The notes: generated by a model not told the origin, from the letters alone. 64,000 bases of DNA from Candidatus Omnitrophota bacterium (GCA_024542985.1 JAMXCX010000001.1:3137-67136); one strand, 5' to 3'; shown: positions 6,470 to 61,227, counted from the stretch's first letter. Made by a program: numbers and translations.

Positions 6470-6892
6470 TTACCAAAAATCACAAGTTTGGCCTATCCTA
6501 CCTCTAATTTCAGTTACAAACATCTGCTCATTAGCACAAAGACCTTCATCGTGCCGGGTAGCAGTTGCATTAAACCCTCCAGTTACGCTCGCTGTAATAG
6601 TATAATCAAAAAACTTGTCATCAATATTAATGCCTAAGTTCAGCTTAATCGATTGCTTACTGCATGGATCACAGATATAATATACACCCATATTATCCAG
6701 CTTGTGCCTCTTTTGGGCATTATAAATACTAACCAATGTTAAACTGGCGATTTTACCCTTACTCCTTTCAATAGAACCCTGATAAGAAGGCACTGCGAAG
6801 GATAGTACAATACCCATAATTACCAGCACCACCATTATCTCTAATAGAGAAAAGGTTTGCCTTTTTATTGTATTTATGGCTTTTTTTTTCAC
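6470..6892 (-). CDS. type IV pilin-like protein (140 aa)
   Basis: GTG start with GAGGGAGG Shine-Dalgarno. MKKKAINTIKRQT-FSLLEIMVVLVIMGIVLSF: class III signal peptide with Glu+5; two Cys near C-terminus (D-region-like); Thr at -1. Confidence 0.7.
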   Translation of the reverse strand: MKKKAINTIKRQTFSLLEIMVVLVIMGIVLSFAVPSYQGSIERSKGKIASLTLVSIYNAQKRHKLDNMGVYYICDPCSKQSIKLNLGINIDDKFFDYTITASVTGGFNATATRHDEGLCANEQMFVTEIRGRIGQTCDFW

Positions 6893-7802: not shown

Positions 7803-9232
7803 TTTAAGTTAGGGAATCTTGCTGCTTTGACCTCATCAATTCTTTTTACTGAAACCGAGTGAGGTGCAGTTTTGACTTTGGCTAAATCCTGGTCTATCTC
7901 CTTATCTATATCTCTCATGGCTTTAATGAAATAATCCAAAGCCTGCTTGCTTTCAGTTTCTGTAGGTTCTATCATTAAAGCTTCAGCAACAATTAAGGGA
8001 AAATACATTGTCGGGGGATGGATACCAAAGTCAATTAACCTCTTGGCAATATCCAGGCTTGAAGCTCCCCGCTCTTTTTGCTTTTGACAGCTGAACACAA
8101 CTTCATGTAGACACCTTTTAGGGTAAGCTACCTCATATTGATTCTTTAACTTTTCCTTTATATAATTAGCATTTAAAGTCGACACCTGGGCTACCCTTAA
8201 CAAGCCTTGTTCTCCTAAGCGCAAGATATAGGCATAAGCTCTTACCAAGACAAGAAAATTGCCGTAAAATCCTTTTAAGCGGCCGATAGAATTTTTCACC
8301 TGGTAATTCAGGTAAAATTTGTCTCCCCTTTTATCTATCAAGGGAAAGGGCAAAAAATCCTCTAAGGTATCTCCTGCTCCTACTGCGCCGGCACCCGGGC
8401 CGCCGCAGCCGTGAGGTGTAGAAAAAGTCTTATGCAGATTTAAGTGGATAACATCAAACCCCATCAAAGAAGGATTAGTAACGCCTAGCAGAGGGTTGAA
8501 ATTAGCTCCGTCATAATAAAGCAAACCACCTTTTTTATGAACAATATCTCTTATCTCTAGAATATTCTCCTCAAATAACCCTAAAGTATTGGGGTTGGTA
8601 AGCATTATTGCTGCTACTTTATCGTCGACAATCTCTTTCAATCTGTTAATATTTACCAAACCGTCCTTAGTGCTTTCAACTGTCAATACTTGATAACCGC
8701 ACATACTGGCTGTAGCCGGATTAGTTCCGTGAGCGGAATCCGGAATAATAACTTTAGTTTTTTGATTGTTGTTTATCCGGTGAAATTTGCGAATCATCAG
8801 GAGCCCGGCTAACTCACCTTGGGCCCCGCTTGAAGGCTGAAAAGTAAACCTCTTCATCCCGGTAATTACACTTAAGGCTTGGGATAAATTATAAATAAGC
8901 TCTAAAGCACCTTGAATACAATCTGCGTTCTGGTAAGGATGGATATCAGTAAATCCGGCTAGAGAAGCTAAATACTCGTTAAGTTTAGGATTATATTTCA
9001 TAGTGCAGGAGCCTAAGGGGTAAAAATTGCTATCAACAGAAAAATTTGAACTGCTTAAACTAGTATAATGCCGAATTACTTCCAACTCCCCCAGGTTAGG
9101 TAAAGGTAGGTTCTCTCTTAGACAACTTTTAGGAATAACTTTATCCAGCTCAGCTAAAGGAGTATCCGGCTGGTTTATGTAATTAGTATTTTTTGAATTG
9201 CTGTTTTTGTCAAATATTTGTAGTTTCTCCAT
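7781..9232 (-). CDS. gcvPB: glycine dehydrogenase (aminomethyl-transferring) subunit 2
   Basis: PLP-dependent P-protein C-terminal half; start moved to MEKLQIF (ATG 9230-9232) to limit overlap with gcvPA; conserved operon position. Confidence 0.9.
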   Translation of the reverse strand: MEKLQIFDKNSNSKNTNYINQPDTPLAELDKVIPKSCLRENLPLPNLGELEVIRHYTSLSSSNFSVDSNFYPLGSCTMKYNPKLNEYLASLAGFTDIHPYQNADCIQGALELIYNLSQALSVITGMKRFTFQPSSGAQGELAGLLMIRKFHRINNNQKTKVIIPDSAHGTNPATASMCGYQVLTVESTKDGLVNINRLKEIVDDKVAAIMLTNPNTLGLFEENILEIRDIVHKKGGLLYYDGANFNPLLGVTNPSLMGFDVIHLNLHKTFSTPHGCGGPGAGAVGAGDTLEDFLPFPLIDKRGDKFYLNYQVKNSIGRLKGFYGNFLVLVRAYAYILRLGEQGLLRVAQVSTLNANYIKEKLKNQYEVAYPKRCLHEVVFSCQKQKERGASSLDIAKRLIDFGIHPPTMYFPLIVAEALMIEPTETESKQALDYFIKAMRDIDKEIDQDLAKVKTAPHSVSVKRIDEVKAARFPNLKWEKSGD

Positions 9233-19063: not shown

Positions 19064-19323
19064 ACCTGCCTGCTGTGTAGTTCTTCACAGTTTCAGTAAC
19101 AAGAAAGCAAAGATATGCAATAACAATTTTTGAGGAGGCTCTGAGGCCTTAAAAGCAAGGTATCCAGACCGAAGGGATGGATTTTTAAGGCCGAAGCGCC
19201 AGGCAAAAGTCCTGCCTGCTGCCGGCAGGCAGGACTTTTGGGTCCCAGAAAATTGTTAATGTATATCCATGGTCTTTTATCAAATGTTACCGAAATTCTG
19301 AAGTTGTACACGGTAGGCAGGCC
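19064..19323. promoter_or_regulatory. symmetric array of GC-rich CCTGCCTRC motifs (outer imperfect inverted repeats plus central palindrome CCTGCCTGCTGCCGGCAGGCAGG) directly upstream of the permease promoter
   Basis: 19066 fwd, 19211 fwd, 19224 rev, 19313 rev copies; a TTGAGC-16-TATGAT promoter lies between the left arm and the permease ATG. Confidence 0.4.
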
Positions 19324-54847: not shown

Positions 54848-54867
54848 GCAACTGCCGGCAGGCAAGC
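54848..54867. repeat. GC-rich palindromic motif GCAACTGCCGGCAGGCAAGC (CTGCCGGCAG family) upstream of yvcK-like gene
   Basis: Read directly, ~65 nt upstream of the 54786 start. Confidence 0.45.
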
Positions 54868-55418: not shown

Positions 55419-55443
55419 CCTTGCCTGCCTGCCGGCAGGCCTG
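55419..55443. repeat. GC-rich palindrome CCTTGCCTGCCTGCCGGCAGGCCTG (CTGCCGGCAG family)
   Basis: Between tRNA-Gly 3' end and ptsN start; followed by CTGTTTGCTAAAAAACAG hairpin. Confidence 0.5.
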
Positions 55444-55505: not shown

Positions 55506-55579
55506 AGCGGAGGAAGGGAATTGAACCCTCAACCTTCACGTTGGCAACGTGACGCTCTAGCCGATTGAGCTACCCCCGC
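55506..55579 (-). tRNA. tRNA-Gly(GCC)
   Basis: Minus-strand GCGGGGGTAGCTCAATCGGCTAGAGC... cloverleaf; anticodon loop TTGCCAA; T-arm GAGGGTTCAATTCCCTT. Confidence 0.8.
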
Positions 55580-55659
55580 AGTTACAGCTATAAGCTATAA
55601 GCTTTAAGTTGTAAGTATAAAGAGCAAGCACTTTCTAGCGCTGTAGCGAAATCGGGAAA

Positions 55660-55745
55660 CCGATTGTTCAATGAGACTTGAACTTTTGCAAGTAGTAAGG
55701 CTCAGCAAAAGTTCTTAGTCGAATTAATCCCGACGAGCGCAGCGA
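55660..55745 (-). repeat. inverted copy of ~85-nt intergenic repeat family (see 58871-59040)
   Basis: Reverse complement aligns to the unit1/unit2 junction of the rpsB-upstream tandem repeat (…gtcgggattaattcgactaagaacttttg… and …caaaagttcaagtctcattgaac…). Confidence 0.55.
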
Positions 55746-55752
55746 TGTCGGG

Positions 55753-55815
55753 GAGCTACCCCCGCAATTATAGCTTTAAGCTACAAGCGGTAAGCTGTAA
55801 GCTTTAAGTTGTAAA
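55753..55815 (-). other. duplicated 5' end (14 nt) of tRNA-Gly plus upstream leader (direct repeat of 55567-55625, period ~187 bp)
   Basis: gagctacccccgca + ...agct(t/a)taagct...gctttaagttgtaa(a)g repeated; copies flank the inverted repeat element. Confidence 0.5.
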
Positions 55816-55909
55816 GAACAAATACAGAAAATTAGTACTTATTTTTTCAATGATATAATATTTATTGCGAATCAATTCTACTATCGATTATTAACAATCA
55901 GCGACTATG

Positions 55910-55991
55910 TGCGGACGGGGAGAGTTGAACTCCCACCTCTTACGAGACTAGATCCTAAGTCTAGCGCGTCTGCCAATTCCGCCACGTCCGC
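55910..55991 (-). tRNA. tRNA-Leu(TAG)
   Basis: GCGGACGTGGCGGAATTGGCAGACGC...; anticodon loop CTTAGGA; long variable arm; discriminator A. Confidence 0.8.
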
Positions 55992-56041
55992 TAATATACA
56001 GACGCTGGCTTTAATATCTTATCTTTGCACTGAAATAATCG

Positions 56042-56115
56042 TGAGCCGCCCCAGGATCGAACTGGGGACAGCCGCCTTAAAAGGGCGGTGCTCTACCAAA
56101 CTGAGCTAGCGGCCC
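56042..56115 (-). tRNA. tRNA-Lys(TTT)
   Basis: GGGCCGCTAGCTCAGTTTGGTAGAGC...; anticodon loop CTTTTAA; T-arm CCCCAGTTCGATCCTGGGG. Confidence 0.8.
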
Positions 56116-56149
56116 GCAGTGCGTTATCCTTTGATTACAAAATAAAAGA

Positions 56150-56710
56150 TCAAAACTCTTTAAGCTCTCTCTCTTTGTCTTCCAAAATCTTATCTATACT
56201 TTTTATGCAGCTATCAGTTAGTTTCTGCAATACATCTTCTGACTTAAATCTATCGTCTTCAGTAATCTTTTTGCTCTTCTCTAAGCTTTTTATTTCTTCC
56301 TTCCCATCTCTTCTCACTGTTCTAATAGATACTTTGCCTTCCTCAACTATTCTTTTAACTATTTTTATCAATTCTTGCCTACGCTCCTGCGATAAAGGCG
56401 GCACTATTAACCTTATGATTTTTCCATCGTTAACCGGAGTAATTCCTAGATCCGATTGCAAAATAGCCTTCTCGATTTCCTTAGAAGAAGAAGGATCATA
56501 AGGGCTTATCACAATCATTCTTGCTTCAGGTATTCCTATGGTTGCAATTTCTTTAAGCAATGTCAGTGTCTCGTAGTAATTTACCTTAATCCCTTCGACC
56601 ATTTTAGTATTGGCTCTACCTGAACGTAACTCGGCTAGTTCTCGCTTAGTAGCCTCTATCGCTTTCTTCATATCCCTTTCTATTTCTTTTAAAATTTCTT
56701 TTGTCAGCAT
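56150..56710 (-). CDS. frr: ribosome recycling factor
   Basis: Start taken at MLTKEILKEIERDMKKAIE... (internal Met of track ORF); conserved rpsB-tsf-pyrH-frr order. Confidence 0.85.
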   Translation of the reverse strand: MLTKEILKEIERDMKKAIEATKRELAELRSGRANTKMVEGIKVNYYETLTLLKEIATIGIPEARMIVISPYDPSSSKEIEKAILQSDLGITPVNDGKIIRLIVPPLSQERRQELIKIVKRIVEEGKVSIRTVRRDGKEEIKSLEKSKKITEDDRFKSEDVLQKLTDSCIKSIDKILEDKERELKEF

Positions 56711-56724
56711 AATAGGAGACTTTT

Positions 56725-57453
56725 TTACCTGATAATAGTTCCAATTTTCTGGCCACAAACTACTTTTTTTAGATTACCTTTCTGCATAAAATTAAATACA
56801 ATTATCGGCAGTTTATTTTCCATACACAAGCTAATAGCTGTAGTATCCATTATCCGCAAGCCTTTATTAATCACCTGCATATAGTTTAATTCTTTAAACA
56901 TCTTTGCCTTCCTGTTTCTAAGAGGGTCGCACGAATAGACTCCATCTACTTTTGTGCCTTTGAACAATGCATCGACCCCTATCTCTACACTTCTTAAAGC
57001 TGCCGCCGTATCAGTAGTAAAATAAGGATTGCCGGTTCCGGCAACAAATATCACTACTCTTTTTTTCTCCAGATGCCGCACAGCTCTTAGGCGAATATAA
57101 GGCTCAGCTATCCTTTCCATCTCAATTGCAGTCATAACCCGGCTGGGAATACCCTGATTTTCTAAAGCATTTTGCAAAGCAAGACCATTTAAAACAGTGG
57201 CTAACATTCCCATGTAATCGGCAACTGTCCTTTGCATCTGGAGTTCGCTAGATTTAGAAACCCCTCTAAATATATTACCGCCTCCAACTACCAGAGATAT
57301 TTCTACTCCTAAATTCACTATCTCTTTAATTTGTTTAGCCAAATGCGCACAGACGGAAGTATCAATACCGTGAGAATATCTGCCGGAGAAAGCTTCTCCG
57401 CTTAGTTTAAGAAGAATTCTCTTATACTTAGCACTTGTCTTTTTGGTCTTCAT
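56725..57453 (-). CDS. pyrH: UMP kinase
   Basis: KRILLKLSGEAF... Confidence 0.9.
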   Translation of the reverse strand: MKTKKTSAKYKRILLKLSGEAFSGRYSHGIDTSVCAHLAKQIKEIVNLGVEISLVVGGGNIFRGVSKSSELQMQRTVADYMGMLATVLNGLALQNALENQGIPSRVMTAIEMERIAEPYIRLRAVRHLEKKRVVIFVAGTGNPYFTTDTAAALRSVEIGVDALFKGTKVDGVYSCDPLRNRKAKMFKELNYMQVINKGLRIMDTTAISLCMENKLPIIVFNFMQKGNLKKVVCGQKIGTIIR

Positions 57454-57991
57454 CTTTTTCTCCTAATGAAAAACGTATAAACCTTTTGATTACAACGTTT
57501 TCGCCAGTTTGAGACACAATATCTCTTAAGTATTCTCCAACGGAAATTTTATTATTTTTTATAAAAGGCTGTTCCAAAAGACAATGCTGCTTTACATACT
57601 CATTTGGATTTTTGACATCTTTTAAAAAATCAGAAGGAATGTTCTCTTTCTTTATATACTCAGGGTTACTCGCTGCTACCTGCATAGCCATATCCTTAAC
57701 AAATTTCTTAAATATTTCTGTGCGTCCGACAAAATCAGTTTCGCAATTTACCTCAATTAGCACTCCTAGATTACCCCTAAAATGTACATAAGAATCTATC
57801 AAGCCCTCATGAGCTGCTCTTGCGCTCTTTTTCTCAAGCATTCTTATTCCTCTCTTTTTCAATATTTTTAGAGCCTCGTTGAAATCACCCTCAGATTCAC
57901 TTAAAGCTTTTTTACAATCATTAACACCTAGAGATGTCAACTCTCTCAACTTCTTAATGTCAGTCAAGCCCACCTTATTCCTCCTTTTCAT
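57428..57991 (-). CDS. tsf: translation elongation factor Ts (short form)
   Basis: IKKLRELTSLGVNDCKKAL UBA-like N-terminus; 187 aa. Confidence 0.85.
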   Translation of the reverse strand: MKRRNKVGLTDIKKLRELTSLGVNDCKKALSESEGDFNEALKILKKRGIRMLEKKSARAAHEGLIDSYVHFRGNLGVLIEVNCETDFVGRTEIFKKFVKDMAMQVAASNPEYIKKENIPSDFLKDVKNPNEYVKQHCLLEQPFIKNNKISVGEYLRDIVSQTGENVVIKRFIRFSLGEKDEDQKDKC

Positions 57992-58021
57992 GGTAACTTT
58001 TCAAAACTTCTATTCTTTAGC

Positions 58022-58813
58022 CTAGGCATCTACTACTTTATCGCCTTTTGGGTGTAGATTTTCTGCTGCTTTTGGTTCAGAATCTGCTGCATCAGCTACC
58101 AACGTCTTATCTTTTACGGTATCTTTAGTCTTTTTCAGACCTTCTTCAATGGCCTCAATAAGACACGAAGTTATATATTTTACTGATTTTATGGAATCAT
58201 CATTACCTGGTATTGGGTAATCAATAATCTCAGGGTCAGCGTCAGTATCAATTAAAGCTACTATAGGTATGTCTAGCTTACGCACTTCTCTTACGCAGGA
58301 AGTTTCCTTTTTAGGATCAACAACATAAACACAATCAGGTAAAGTCTCTAATGAAGTCACTCCGCTGTAGCTCTTTTCCATTCTTTCTAATTGACGGTTT
58401 AATTTCACCACCTCTTTCTTTATCATTTTATCAAATCCACCCGTATCTCTTTTCTTTACAAGCTCTATATATTTATTTACCCTGCTTCTTACGGTAGCAA
58501 AATTGGTAAGTAACCCCCCGACCCATCTCTCGGTTACATAAGGCATATCACAAGAAGAAGCCATCTCCTTAATCAACCCCCTAAGCTGTTTTTTAGTAGC
58601 AACAAAAAGAATCTTTCCTCCTGTTTGAGCTTGCTGCTTTAAGAAATCTTTCGCTTCCTGGATTTTTTGGGCCGTTTTCTCCAAATCGATTATATATACA
58701 TTCTTTTTTTTGCCAAAAATAAACCCTTTCATTTTGGGATTCCAGTGTTTACTCAAGTGGCCAAAATGAACGCCACTTTCTAATAATCCTTTAATTATTT
58801 CCGGTAAAGCCAT
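58022..58813 (-). CDS. rpsB: 30S ribosomal protein S2
   Basis: Start at MALPEIIKGLLESGVHFGH (ATG 58811-58813) preceded by AAGGAGG Shine-Dalgarno. Confidence 0.9.
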   Translation of the reverse strand: MALPEIIKGLLESGVHFGHLSKHWNPKMKGFIFGKKKNVYIIDLEKTAQKIQEAKDFLKQQAQTGGKILFVATKKQLRGLIKEMASSCDMPYVTERWVGGLLTNFATVRSRVNKYIELVKKRDTGGFDKMIKKEVVKLNRQLERMEKSYSGVTSLETLPDCVYVVDPKKETSCVREVRKLDIPIVALIDTDADPEIIDYPIPGNDDSIKSVKYITSCLIEAIEEGLKKTKDTVKDKTLVADAADSEPKAAENLHPKGDKVVDA

Positions 58814-58870
58814 AGTACTTTTCCTCCTTACAATGCTGATACTCAGCACAAGTTTCAACTACACAGTTTT

Positions 58871-59040
58871 TCTTCGCTGTTGGCTCGAAAAACTATAAGT
58901 CTCATTGAGCCCTGCGACGCTACTCGCGTCCCAGGATTAATTCAACTAAACACTTTTGGGCGCTTCGCTTCAAAAGTGTAAGTTTCATTGAACCCTTGGG
59001 GTTAAAACCCTAAGGGTTTCCTGCGTCGGGATAAGACTAA
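58871..59040. repeat. two diverged tandem copies of an ~85-nt intergenic repeat (unit1 58871-58960, unit2 58961-59040)
   Basis: Shared blocks: cttcgct...aaaa(c/g)t(a/g)taagt(c/t)tcattga(g/a)ccc ... gcgtc(cca/g)gga(t)taa...actaaa; also present inverted at 55660-55745 and in modified form at 61091-61225. Confidence 0.55.
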
Positions 59041-59167
59041 AAATACAGTAAAATCACTAGTATTTAGACAACTGCTTAATCTCCAATTAGACAGAAAGTA
59101 TATCATATTTTCTAATATTTTCAACAATATATTATCTATAGATTTCTCGATATAAAATCAGGAGTAT

Positions 59168-60985
59168 CTATTCAGAAAATTGTAAATCGTAGAACTTTTT
59201 ATATAAACTATTTGCTTTTAATAATTGCTGATGTGTTCCTACCTCAGCAATTCTACCTTTATCCAAAACGGCTATTCTATCGGCCTTTTGGATAGTGGAA
59301 AGCCGGTGGGCAATAACAAAAGAAGTTTTTCCTTCCATTAAGGCATAAAGAGCATCCTTTATTAATTGCTCGGATACAGAATCAAGATGGCTAGTTGCCT
59401 CATCTAAAATCAAAATAGGCGCGTCTTTTAAAATCGCCCGGGCAATAGCAATTCTTTGTTTCTGGCCTCCGGACAATCTAAAGCCTCTGTCACCTACAAT
59501 TGTATTGAAATTTTCCGGCAATTTCATAATAAACTCATAGGCATGAGCTTTTTTGGCTGCTTCGATAATTTCAGAAGATGAAGCTCCCTCTTTCCCGTAA
59601 GCGATATTATCTTTTATGGTCGTATTAAAAAGAACAGTCTCTTGAGAAACAATTGAGATTAGGGAACGCAGGTCTTTTAATTTAACTTCTTTTATATCTA
59701 AACTATCTATACAAATTGTTCCCTTCTGCGGGTCATAAAATCTCAGCAATAATCCCACCAGGGTAGTTTTACCTGCCCCAGAATGCCCAACCAAAGCCAG
59801 CACTTCTCCCTTTTTTACCTCTAAATTAATATCTTCCAATATATAGCCATCTTCCTGGTTATACTCAAAACTAATTCCCTTAAAGGCAATTTGAGCACGC
59901 AGTTGCTTTAATCCTTTAGCTTCCCCTGCGTCTTTTATTGTAGGCTTTTGTTCTAGAATTTCATAAATCCGTGCAGATGCTGCTAGAGCTTTTTGGTTAA
60001 TGGCATGGACATTGGCTAATTTCTTTAAAGGACGTATCATAGACAAAAGAAAAATAAGAAATGTAGCAAAAACACCAAAAGAAAGCTTACCCGCAAGTAA
60101 CTCCGAGGATATTATGCACATGACTGCTATACCTCCTGCAATACCAAAAAATTCAGTCAAAGGTGATAATAGAAGGATTCTCTTAGTGCTTTTCAAAGTG
60201 AATTTATAATAATCCTGATTGATATTTTTAAATCTCTCCATTTCATAACTCTCACGGCAAAAAGCCTTTACAACATGTGCACCCTGGATGGTCTCTTGCA
60301 TTTGGGAATTTAAATCCGCTATTTTCTTTTGCACCTCTACGCTGAATTTTTTAACTCGCTTGCCTATCCTTGCAACCGGAATCATTATCGGCGGAAAAAT
60401 AAAAAAAATAACCAAGGGTAATTTCCAAGATATCTGAAAACCAATCCAAAGAGCCATAAAAACAAAAAATACCAATTTCATTGACTCAAAAATAAAATCC
60501 CTAAGGGCGTAAGAAATTGCATTGGTAATTATAGCAACATCATTGGTAACGCGGGACATTAATTCTCCCACCCTTTGTTTACCGTAAAAATCCAGGGATA
60601 AATCCTGTAATTTAGCATATAATTTATTTCTTACATCCTTTACTACACCTTCACCGACAACATTCATGAGGTAACCCTGCAAGAAGATGAATAGCCCTTT
60701 AACCAGAAACAAAATCGGCAGAAATACAACCATGTACTTAAAAAACACTGCCGGTTCTATTGAATTTAATTTCTCAACAATATCAGCTAAAAATTGAGGT
60801 AATTGACCGGGAATAACTATCGGTTTGTTGGTAAACACTCTATCGGTTAGAGGCCCCATCATGCCTAAGCTTATCCCCTCAAAGATAGTAGATGCCCCCA
60901 TGCAAAGAGCTGCCACAGCCAGGGTTTTGATATAAGACCTTGCAAACTTAAGCAATTTAAAGTATTCTTTCAGGTGTTTTTTCAT
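59168..60985 (-). CDS. msbA: ABC transporter permease/ATPase, MsbA-like lipid exporter
   Basis: Six-TM N-terminal domain plus Walker A GHSGAGKTTL, signature LSGGQKQRIAIARAIL; start chosen at ATG MKKHLKE (track ORF begins at TTG 12 nt upstream). Confidence 0.8.
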   Translation of the reverse strand: MKKHLKEYFKLLKFARSYIKTLAVAALCMGASTIFEGISLGMMGPLTDRVFTNKPIVIPGQLPQFLADIVEKLNSIEPAVFFKYMVVFLPILFLVKGLFIFLQGYLMNVVGEGVVKDVRNKLYAKLQDLSLDFYGKQRVGELMSRVTNDVAIITNAISYALRDFIFESMKLVFFVFMALWIGFQISWKLPLVIFFIFPPIMIPVARIGKRVKKFSVEVQKKIADLNSQMQETIQGAHVVKAFCRESYEMERFKNINQDYYKFTLKSTKRILLLSPLTEFFGIAGGIAVMCIISSELLAGKLSFGVFATFLIFLLSMIRPLKKLANVHAINQKALAASARIYEILEQKPTIKDAGEAKGLKQLRAQIAFKGISFEYNQEDGYILEDINLEVKKGEVLALVGHSGAGKTTLVGLLLRFYDPQKGTICIDSLDIKEVKLKDLRSLISIVSQETVLFNTTIKDNIAYGKEGASSSEIIEAAKKAHAYEFIMKLPENFNTIVGDRGFRLSGGQKQRIAIARAILKDAPILILDEATSHLDSVSEQLIKDALYALMEGKTSFVIAHRLSTIQKADRIAVLDKGRIAEVGTHQQLLKANSLYKKFYDLQFSE

Positions 60986-61015
60986 GGTTAAAATCAAGGA
61001 ATTTTACCACACCGA

Positions 61016-61044
61016 TTGACTTTTCACAAGAGATTTGATACAAT
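61016..61044 (+). promoter_or_regulatory. sigma70-like promoter TTGACT - 17 nt - TACAAT driving the plus-strand leader/Gfo-lpxB operon
   Basis: Read directly; only near-consensus -35/-10 pair in this divergent intergenic region. Confidence 0.45.
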
Positions 61045-61098
61045 CAGCAAACAGAAAACAACGGACAGATCGCTAATTTCTGACATCTGACTCTTGAA

Positions 61099-61183
61099 AT
61101 GGAGCCCCACCCGGGCTAAAGCCCGGGGTTCCCTTAGGGGCGCAATCCCTGCCTACCGGCAGGCAGGCCCGACCCGCCTCCAT
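61099..61183 (+). ncRNA. structured GC-rich 5' leader element closed by AUGGAG/CUCCAU helix (candidate riboswitch-like or attenuator RNA)
   Basis: Contains hairpin CCCGGGC-UAAA-GCCCGGG, CCCUUAGGGG and the palindrome CCUGCCUACCGGCAGGCAGG; related to the 85-nt repeat family. Confidence 0.35.
61147..61170. repeat. GC-rich palindromic motif CCCTGCCTACCGGCAGGCAGGCCC (CTGCCGGCAG family) in msbA / Gfo-lpxB divergent region
   Basis: Read directly; lies inside the structured plus-strand leader. Confidence 0.45.
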
Positions 61184-61184
61184 T

Positions 61185-61211
61185 CTCGGTCTAAAGGCCG
61201 AGGTTTTGTGG
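61185..61211 (+). terminator. intrinsic-terminator-like hairpin CUCGGUC-UAAA-GGCCGAG followed by GUUUUGUGG, 17 nt before start codon at 61228
   Basis: 7-bp GC-rich stem (one G-U) with tetraloop and U-rich tail on the plus strand only. Confidence 0.4.
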
Positions 61212-61227
61212 CGTCGGGATAAACGAT

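Follow-up and report, generated by a model that had tools for sequence, protein, structure and literature searches.

Two-hairpin units of ~85 nt that interrupt partial tRNA-gene copies in Candidatus Omnitrophota and beyond: an apparently undescribed family, most likely acting as DNA

Introduction

Repetitive extragenic palindromes (REPs) and bacterial interspersed mosaic elements (BIMEs) are mobilised by Y1 transposases called RAYTs, short for REP-associated tyrosine transposases. They form regular arrays with conserved linkers and are thought to be handled as single-stranded hairpins. What REPs conserve is the sequence of the hairpin, an imperfect palindrome of 20-40 bp, together with a tag, GTAG or CGTC, at one foot (PMC3733652). 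Here we describe a repeat unit of ~85 nt found in 64 kb of a Candidatus Omnitrophota genome (the window; positions given without a locus number are window coordinates). Like REPs and BIMEs, it is a short intergenic palindrome that occurs in both orientations, between genes and inside operons, and in regular arrays. Unlike them, it has variable hairpins, conserved linkers and no tag. It further differs in its 85-nt length with two dissimilar hairpins, in crossing phyla and in inserting in copies of tRNA genes.

Literature searches by sequence and by keywords returned no description of the element, and the family is apparently undescribed. With moderate confidence, we favour the explanation that it belongs to the interspersed palindromes, as a small non-autonomous DNA element resembling REPs and BIMEs, the palindrome-associated transposable elements (PATEs) of IS200/IS605 or the attC sites of integrons. 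Such an element would be handled as single-stranded DNA, would insert by a short motif without duplication and would favour tRNA-gene sequence.

A family of conserved linkers and covarying hairpins

Each unit consists, in this order, of hairpin H1, linker L1 (GGATTAATTCRACTAA), hairpin H2 and linker L2 ((A)AGTYTCATTGAA). H1 is mostly of the form (T)CCCG...CGGG(A). The two linkers, ~14 nt each, are conserved between genomes, whereas the stems of both hairpins are free in sequence. Pairwise similarity among the window copies is weak (blastn E 0.06-1), and the case for a family rests on evidence from outside the window.

A search pattern of 25 positions was taken from the window linkers (ATTAATTCRACTAA, a gap of 20-50, AGTYTCATTGA). 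Its chance expectation, which comes from our own arithmetic and was not given by the tool, is below 1 per 10^12 bases. Matches were obtained in 58 contigs from ~40 metagenome data sets. At 58 of the 58 loci, an H1 directly 5' of L1 and a self-complementary H2 were present, though the pattern required neither, and their stem sequences differ widely among loci through compensating changes. The matches outside the window, together with these hairpins, are decisive support for the repeat being more than chance.

A covariance model (R1), a check that had been proposed in a preliminary description of this DNA, yielded 77 matches (69 distinct) from 100 sources and revealed a conserved paired structure. 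The matches include further named metagenome-assembled genomes (MAGs) of Omnitrophota (loci L010, L012 and L033). In the alignment of the matches, which was fitted to the model so that its pairing and covariation figures lean towards structure, 89% of cells are paired, both sides change in 21 of the 24 pairs, and the covariation score is 0.447, against controls that reached 0.126 when shuffled and no more than 0.145 with slid partners. The purine of L1 covaries with the pyrimidine of L2 (G-C in 49 of the 69 distinct matches, A-T in 16, other in 4). Because of these pairing and covariation counts, we conclude that L1, H2 and L2 are a single long irregular hairpin, with an invariant 2x2 TC/TC loop and a conserved T·G pair.

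Insertion in partial tRNA-gene copies

Insertion of the unit is precise, occurs without target duplication and in either orientation, and strongly prefers tRNA-gene sequence, namely the D loop and the anticodon loop. Of the distinct sites, about half are no more than 450 nt from a tRNA gene. In the window, this applies to the complete unit A, which is arranged with its flanks as follows:

55506-55579, minus: intact tRNA-Gly(GCC), whose 5' part is duplicated upstream
55567-55622, minus: partner of a 56-nt direct repeat, adjoining the intact tRNA-Gly; 82% identity
55650-55666, minus: third hairpin H3, CAATCGG-TTTC-CCGATT, the displaced D-loop sequence and its complement
55660-55666, minus: CAATCGG, tRNA-Gly nt 13-19, directly 3' of unit A
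55667-55753, minus: complete unit A; 76 bits with the covariance model
55667-55679, minus: L2 of unit A, AAGTCTCATTGAA
55680-55714, minus: H2 of unit A
55715-55728, minus: L1 of unit A, ATTAATTCGACTAA
55728-55753, minus: H1 of unit A, CCCCGAC..GTCGGGA
55754-55765, minus: copy of tRNA-Gly nt 1-12, GCGGGGGTAGCT, directly 5' of unit A
55753-55808, minus: upstream copy of the 56-nt direct repeat, the tRNA-Gly 5' end with the 43 nt upstream of it, a heptamer array among them

With GCGGGGGTAGCT before the unit and CAATCGG after it, a partial copy of tRNA-Gly is therefore interrupted between nt 12 and 13. The window shares this layout with L011 and L009, and the intact tRNA-Gly follows 130-190 nt downstream. 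H3 is conserved in L009 and L011 and covaries at other loci; in general, 7-13 nt of the tRNA are left 3' of the unit, and in several loci they pair with a following complement to form such a third hairpin.

At least eight tRNA sequences (Thr, Gly, Met, Leu, Ala, Ser, Gly(TCC) and Lys) are interrupted in this way, and the joined flanks read as contiguous tRNA with 0-3 mismatches in 22. The junctions are:

Thr, Gly and Met: between nt 12 and 13, element sense
Leu and Ala: between nt 18 and 19, element antisense
Ser(GCT): in the anticodon loop, element antisense
Gly(TCC): in the D loop, element antisense
Lys: at about nt 63, element sense

A check of the flanks for target-site duplication, likewise proposed beforehand, found none at the joined tRNA sequences, with an ambiguity of at most 1 nt. 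The right flank is CA(A/G) in most reconstructed targets and at ~60-70% of 48 sites; on the other strand, the insertion lies 3' of YTG in five of the seven reconstructed tRNA targets. What the unit interrupts is, without exception, a partial copy of a neighbouring tRNA gene that is itself intact. The partial copies often carry the upstream region as well, which amounts to 56 nt (82%) in the window and 64 nt in L009, and includes a TATAAT box in L118.

An empty site is found in L008, a close relative of L009, where the same tRNA-Gly upstream region is present without the unit and without the duplicate; in L009 the site is filled. The tRNA-Gly insertion occurs in three of ~35 Omnitrophota loci, which are not the closest relatives of the window by rpsB identity.

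Side observations concern partial tRNA copies in two loci. In L110 (7230-7285, minus), a tRNA-Phe-like 5' half comprising acceptor, D arm and anticodon stem lies downstream of the element and is followed by a terminator-like hairpin in place of the T arm. ARAGORN calls no tRNA there, and an intact gene was not seen beside this partial copy. In L087 (495-560), a second partial 5' copy of tRNA-Met, GGCGGCGTAGCT, is followed by AATGAGC-hairpin-GCGAATTAC. This stretch resembles a diverged, reverse-oriented unit without H1, and its tRNA position matches that of the complete upstream unit.

Multiplication and spread

Thirteen near-identical copies are dispersed over different contigs from two related samples, Ga0114920 and Ga0209991, each flanked in phase on both sides by (CAGYACC)n. 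Many copies lie at contig ends. One contig of these samples carries rsmD and DUF3822, a domain that we take to be specific to Bacteroidota; the carriers of the family include named Omnitrophota MAGs and a contig with a domain typical of Bacteroidota. Among the loci, GC content spans 30 to 57%. Head-to-tail arrays of two to three units with a period of 85 occur in L125, L082 and L114, and around copies there are tandem duplications 7, 14, 34 and 85 nt long.

Apart from tRNA-associated sites, units occupy other intergenic spacers and 5' leaders. A diverged unit lies in the pyrH-frr spacer of three Omnitrophota (L033, 8067-8150; L010, 8212-8310; L012, 8124-8222). It is in sense orientation in L033 and L010, where L2 continues into the frr ribosome-binding site, and antisense in L012, where the reversed unit overlaps the pyrH stop codon.

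Several observations concern the surroundings of the copies. In L106 (8065-8120) and L109 (399-455), the 14-nt 3' linker CAAGTTTCATTGAA forms four tandem repeats where one copy ends, which suggests slippage or repeated end processing there. Direct copies bracket small toxin-antitoxin-like gene pairs in L121 (9083-10092, copies at 9083 and 10006) and L131 (146-2762, copies at 146 and 2668); judged by eye only, the candidates are ParE/RelE-like with an antitoxin, HigB/HigA-like, and ribbon-helix-helix (RHH) with PIN. In addition, tandem repeats with a period of 7 stand beside tRNA genes in many Omnitrophota loci, each genome having a heptamer of its own (window 55586-55620 and 55772-55814; L013 8150-9450; L023 2583-3584). 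The tRNA cluster of L042 has one heptamer array every 256 nt (8713, 8969, 9225), and period-7 repeats adjoin the element in many metagenome loci too.

Copies in the window and their setting

Besides unit A, the window contains one further complete unit and several incomplete ones:

58911-58992, plus, antisense to rpsB: complete unit B; 78 bits with the covariance model
58911-58936, plus: H1 of unit B
58936-58949, plus: L1 of unit B, ATTAATTCAACTAA
58950-58979, plus: H2 of unit B
58980-58992, plus: L2 of unit B, AAGTTTCATTGAA
58853-58910, plus: partial unit, head-to-tail with unit B; L1 remnant TTTCAACTACA, H2 at 58864-58894, L2 TAAGTCTCATTGAGC; nhmmer E 0.005
58993-59063, plus: degenerate third unit; a different hairpin CCCTTGGGG..CCCTAAGGG, then CCTGCGTCGGG-ATAAGACTAAAA and a weak hairpin, with no recognisable L2
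61168-61224, plus: doubtful remnant; H1-like stem CCCGAC...GTCGGG with a large loop insertion, then ATAAAC

The sequences of units A and B, or sequences identical to them, are in the seed alignment, so that their model scores are not independent evidence. With filters off, the model found no complete copy beyond these two in the 64 kb. As DNA, both strands of the complete units give stable folds (z-scores between -4 and -7; -4.0 / -4.6 for unit A and -5.1 / -7.3 for unit B), whereas the degenerate unit folds no better than shuffled sequences. The three H2 stems of the window have CTTTTG/CAAAAG in common and show compensating changes at the outer pairs. As the copies differ in their stems, the family is old and not recently active in this genome.

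The preliminary description had recognised an undescribed family of ~85 nt with at least four copies. The family stands, but the count becomes two complete units, two partial ones and a doubtful one. The blocks of its two tandem units (58871-58960 and 58961-59040) are real, but their boundaries are not, because the complete unit B straddles both. Its inverted copy (55660-55745) is a whole unit rather than a match to the junction of those two. The shared blocks were read in the wrong register: 'gcgtcgggat(t)aa' combines H1's 3' arm with the start of L1, 'gtctcattga' belongs to L2, and the cccttaggg hairpin is not a feature of the family. The proposed modified copy at 61091-61225 was missed by nhmmer and by the covariance model with filters off. 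It retains only the H1-like stem and AT-AA, which include a 12-nt identity to 59023-59034; over 35 nt of 61168-61224, it has 71% identity as a direct repeat, and at best it is possibly the remnant of a unit. Adjacency to highly expressed genes, which had also been pointed out, is largely explained by the targeting of tRNA-gene sequence.

The genes and signals near the copies are:

minus: gene for EIIA of the phosphotransferase system (PTS)
minus: tRNA-Leu and tRNA-Lys, in the same gene group as tRNA-Gly
55627-55642, minus: terminator-like hairpin AGCGCTAGAAAGTGCT with a T-rich tail, 3' of the tRNA-Gly-associated unit (consensus match only)
minus: frr, pyrH, tsf and rpsB (rpsB at 58022-58816)
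minus: MsbA-like ABC transporter
plus: GFO/IDH-family gene (61228-) and lpxB

A promoter predicted on the minus strand at 59124-59097 would place the array 58853-59063 in the rpsB leader, with the unit antisense, and a predicted plus-strand promoter at 61016-61044 would place the remnant, which ends 3 nt ahead of the GFO/IDH-family start codon, within the leader of the GFO/lpxB operon; both promoters are consensus matches only. The rpsB-based loci of named MAGs share 60-81% identity with the window, and a metagenome scaffold in ENA matches the window with full identity across the region read. An exact-protein look-up had no record for rpsB, and for pyrH it gave nothing beyond the same genome.

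A GC-rich palindrome, CCTGCCTGCCGGCAGGCAGG, is found repeatedly in this AT-rich genome as well as in unrelated contigs (window 19199-19250, 54852-54861, 55420-55440 and 61148-61167; L005 6828; L082 7925; L125 8365; L089 1796). Allowing up to one mismatch, CTGCCGGCAG occurs 6 times in the window compared to 0.57 expected. At 19199-19250, the palindrome is long and perfect with an A-run and a T-run and resembles a bidirectional terminator. Adjacency to GCGCAATCC is seen at 61139-61147 and likewise in L125.

Searches for an enzyme or an autonomous form

Pfam scans identified no transposase or integrase in the ORFs beside arrays, in those beside dispersed copies or in the small ORFs of the window. 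Among the 839 ORFs of the 58 loci, nothing recurs except syntenic orthologues, and viral contigs gave no match to the linker pattern. Candidates for an autonomous form, with linker motifs 1-3 kb apart, in L121, L118 and L125 proved to be chance matches within ordinary genes. Inverted copies in L088 enclose an aminotransferase gene and not a RAYT. A side result is a pilin-like ORF of 140 aa at 6470-6892 (minus) with an N-terminal methylation motif, whose match to the domain of ComP, a DNA-uptake-sequence receptor, is below threshold (25.5 bits against a cut-off of 27.3).

Evaluation of the explanations

The small non-autonomous mobile element, one of two options in the preliminary description, is favoured by the precise insertions in tRNA copies, the empty and the filled site, the near-identical dispersed copies and the two orientations. 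Movement would then occur in trans, through an enzyme that acts on folded single-stranded DNA and is HUH/Y1 transposase-like or integron-integrase-like. Such an enzyme may read the conserved linkers and the shape of the hairpins, and selection for mobility would keep the stems paired. Insertion in a functional tRNA gene would presumably be lethal, and survivors would be seen only in transient or partial duplicates of the gene.

Several findings weigh against this explanation. Neither the flanks, ~0.4 Mb in all, nor the small ORFs of the window yielded a transposase, an integrase or any recurrent protein. No strict target rule emerges, as CA at the right flank is present at only 60-70% of sites and the left flank is unconserved. 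H1 lies at the very end of the element, and its CCCG/CGGG type is unlike H2, which often has a T-run and an A-run; neither fits IS200/IS605 ends. A conserved T·G pair of the linkers occurs on one strand only (63 of 69), a strand-specific feature. The stems of the window copies differ from each other but pair perfectly, which could mean structural selection on each copy, i.e., a host function. Finally, the explanation does not account for how the partial tRNA copies arise.

A bolder version of the mobile-element explanation can be put forward only tentatively. The family may be a new class of mobile DNA that is defined by its hairpins, moves with a single-strand enzyme and homes to the D or anticodon loop of tRNAs on either strand. 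It would occupy or induce promoter-bearing partial tRNA duplicates, give chimeric transcripts of a tRNA 5' fragment and the element, and have spread across phyla including Omnitrophota and Bacteroidota.

The other option of the preliminary description was a structured non-coding RNA, either a small RNA or a cis-regulatory leader, expressed from duplicated tRNA promoters or from leaders such as that of rpsB. The very strong covariation, the invariant unpaired and linker nucleotides and the one-strand T·G pair would suit an RNA, as would the promoters of partial tRNA copies (TATAAT in L118, the duplicated upstream region in the window) and a terminator-like hairpin or T-run 3' of several copies. 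The position of the rpsB and lpx copies inside 5' leaders, according to the predicted promoters, and the contact of L2 with the frr ribosome-binding site in L033 and L010 point the same way. However, an RNA transcribed from one strand should tolerate G·U and not A·C, and in the variable stems the corresponding mismatches G·T and A·C are rare and symmetric (16/15 in H2, 21/24 in H1). Both orientations, claimed for the window at the outset, hold there and elsewhere: relative to adjoining tRNAs, seven units have the same orientation and nine the opposite. Antisense copies lie inside tRNA and rRNA operons (between tRNA-Ile and tRNA-Ala; between tRNA-Leu and tRNA-Ser), either orientation occurs in the one pyrH-frr spacer, and the window copies are sense to the tRNA operon and antisense to rpsB. 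Rfam 15 returned only tRNAs at gathering score and nothing relevant up to E = 5. Given the symmetric mismatches, the free orientation and the lack of an Rfam match, the unit most likely acts as a DNA element and not as an RNA gene; we consider the RNA explanation a poor fit and unlikely.

Somewhat less likely again is that the unit is the site of a site-specific recombinase, an analogue of attC or a cassette boundary, with units or unit-flanked cassettes being inserted and excised. Its layout does resemble a folded attC, with a conserved stem base bearing internal loops and a variable apical stem and loop. Moreover, toxin-antitoxin-like pairs lie between direct copies in L121 and L131, the 85-nt tandem arrays resemble cassettes without ORFs, and the junction on the other strand reads ...TG^TTCAAT. 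This is countered by the absence of the core boxes: the attC consensus has RYYYAAC 5' and GTTRRRY 3', whereas the linkers are ATTAATTCRACTAA and AGTYTCATTGAAC, the only AAC-containing box (ATTGAAC) is at the 3' and not the 5' end, and GTTCAAT is off consensus. Furthermore, no core sequence is common to the two junctions, neither intI nor any other integrase gene nor attI was present in the available flanks of any copy, and most copies are beside housekeeping genes or tRNAs.

The least probable of these three rivals is an immobile structure maintained by the host (a terminator, an mRNA stabiliser or a protein-binding site) that spreads only by local duplication and vertical descent, its link with tRNAs reflecting a function in tRNA operons. 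The diverged and still paired stems in this genome would fit this, as would orthologous occupancy in three Omnitrophota at tRNA-Gly and three at pyrH-frr and the local tandem duplications of many sizes around copies. On the other side, the same linkers occur in genomes as different as the Omnitrophota and Bacteroidota-like ones (GC 30-57%), and eight different tRNA sequences are precisely interrupted. Occupancy is patchy among close relatives (three of ~35 at tRNA-Gly; L008 empty, L009 filled), and one sample pair holds 13 near-identical dispersed copies. The scenario named in the preliminary description as fatal to the family, one local duplication that the tRNA flanks share, is excluded.

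The remaining candidates can be dismissed briefly: read as a CRISPR array, the repeats would have covarying hairpins as 'spacers', where CRISPR spacers are unique and unstructured, only two to three units and no cas genes in the flanks; the tRNA-like cloverleaf of unit A (closing stem GCGG/TCGC) fails since at other loci the 5' and 3' flanks are unpaired and the 5' part is in all cases that of the adjoining tRNA; and likenesses of the linkers to IHF, dif/Xer and T-loop sequences, checked by eye, were unconvincing.

Small palindromic repeats as such are widespread. The combination here of conserved linkers with free hairpins, occurrence across phyla and recurrent exact insertion in truncated tRNA copies points to a mechanism of recognition and insertion outside the rules of REP/RAYT, IS200/IS605 and integrons, and to an enzyme behind it. 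The elements also explain recurrent pseudo-tRNA 5' fragments and duplicated tRNA promoters, which are annotation artefacts, and they coincide with assembly breaks in MAGs of uncultivated groups; the covariance model is a means of tracking them. In the window, the predicted leaders of rpsB and of the operon with lpxB gain strong hairpins from them.

Comparison with known element classes

Compared with REPs, the tag is absent: GTAG occurs only where the flank is the 5' end of a tRNA, the hairpins differ and the left flank is unconserved. No RAYT was found in the small ORFs of the window or in the locus flanks. Miniature inverted-repeat transposable elements with terminal inverted repeats are a poor match as well, since the termini TCCCG... 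and ...CATTGAA are not inverted repeats and no target site is duplicated.

With the PATEs of IS200/IS605, the unit shares the lack of terminal inverted repeats and of target duplication, subterminal hairpins, a short target motif (3' of YTG, on the other strand) and a distance of 13 nt from the junction to H2. It differs in that the motif is only 60-70% conserved, where PATEs insert 3' of a fixed tetra- or pentanucleotide that doubles as the left cleavage site, in its dissimilar hairpins, where the left and right ones of PATEs are similar and bound by one TnpA, and in that TnpA was not found in the flanks or the small ORFs of the window.

Integron attC sites are similar in that structure prevails over sequence, a paired conserved base contains unpaired bases, the top is variable and there is no duplication. 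Their length (~60-140 nt) is comparable to that of the unit, whose copies sometimes flank toxin-antitoxin cassettes. In contrast to attC, the unit lacks R''/R' boxes, has nearly invariant linkers and an extra H1, and lies mostly off cassette boundaries.

The Rickettsia palindromic elements, Correia, ERIC and BOX are likewise structured repeats of ~100 nt that can sit inside genes, including RNA genes, and are long-lived and modular. However, those families are lineage-specific and show terminal inverted repeats, target duplications or both, whereas the unit has neither inverted termini nor duplications. As the unit lacks defining features of REPs, of miniature elements with terminal inverted repeats, of PATEs and of attC, we place the unit outside these four classes and within the interspersed-palindrome kind.

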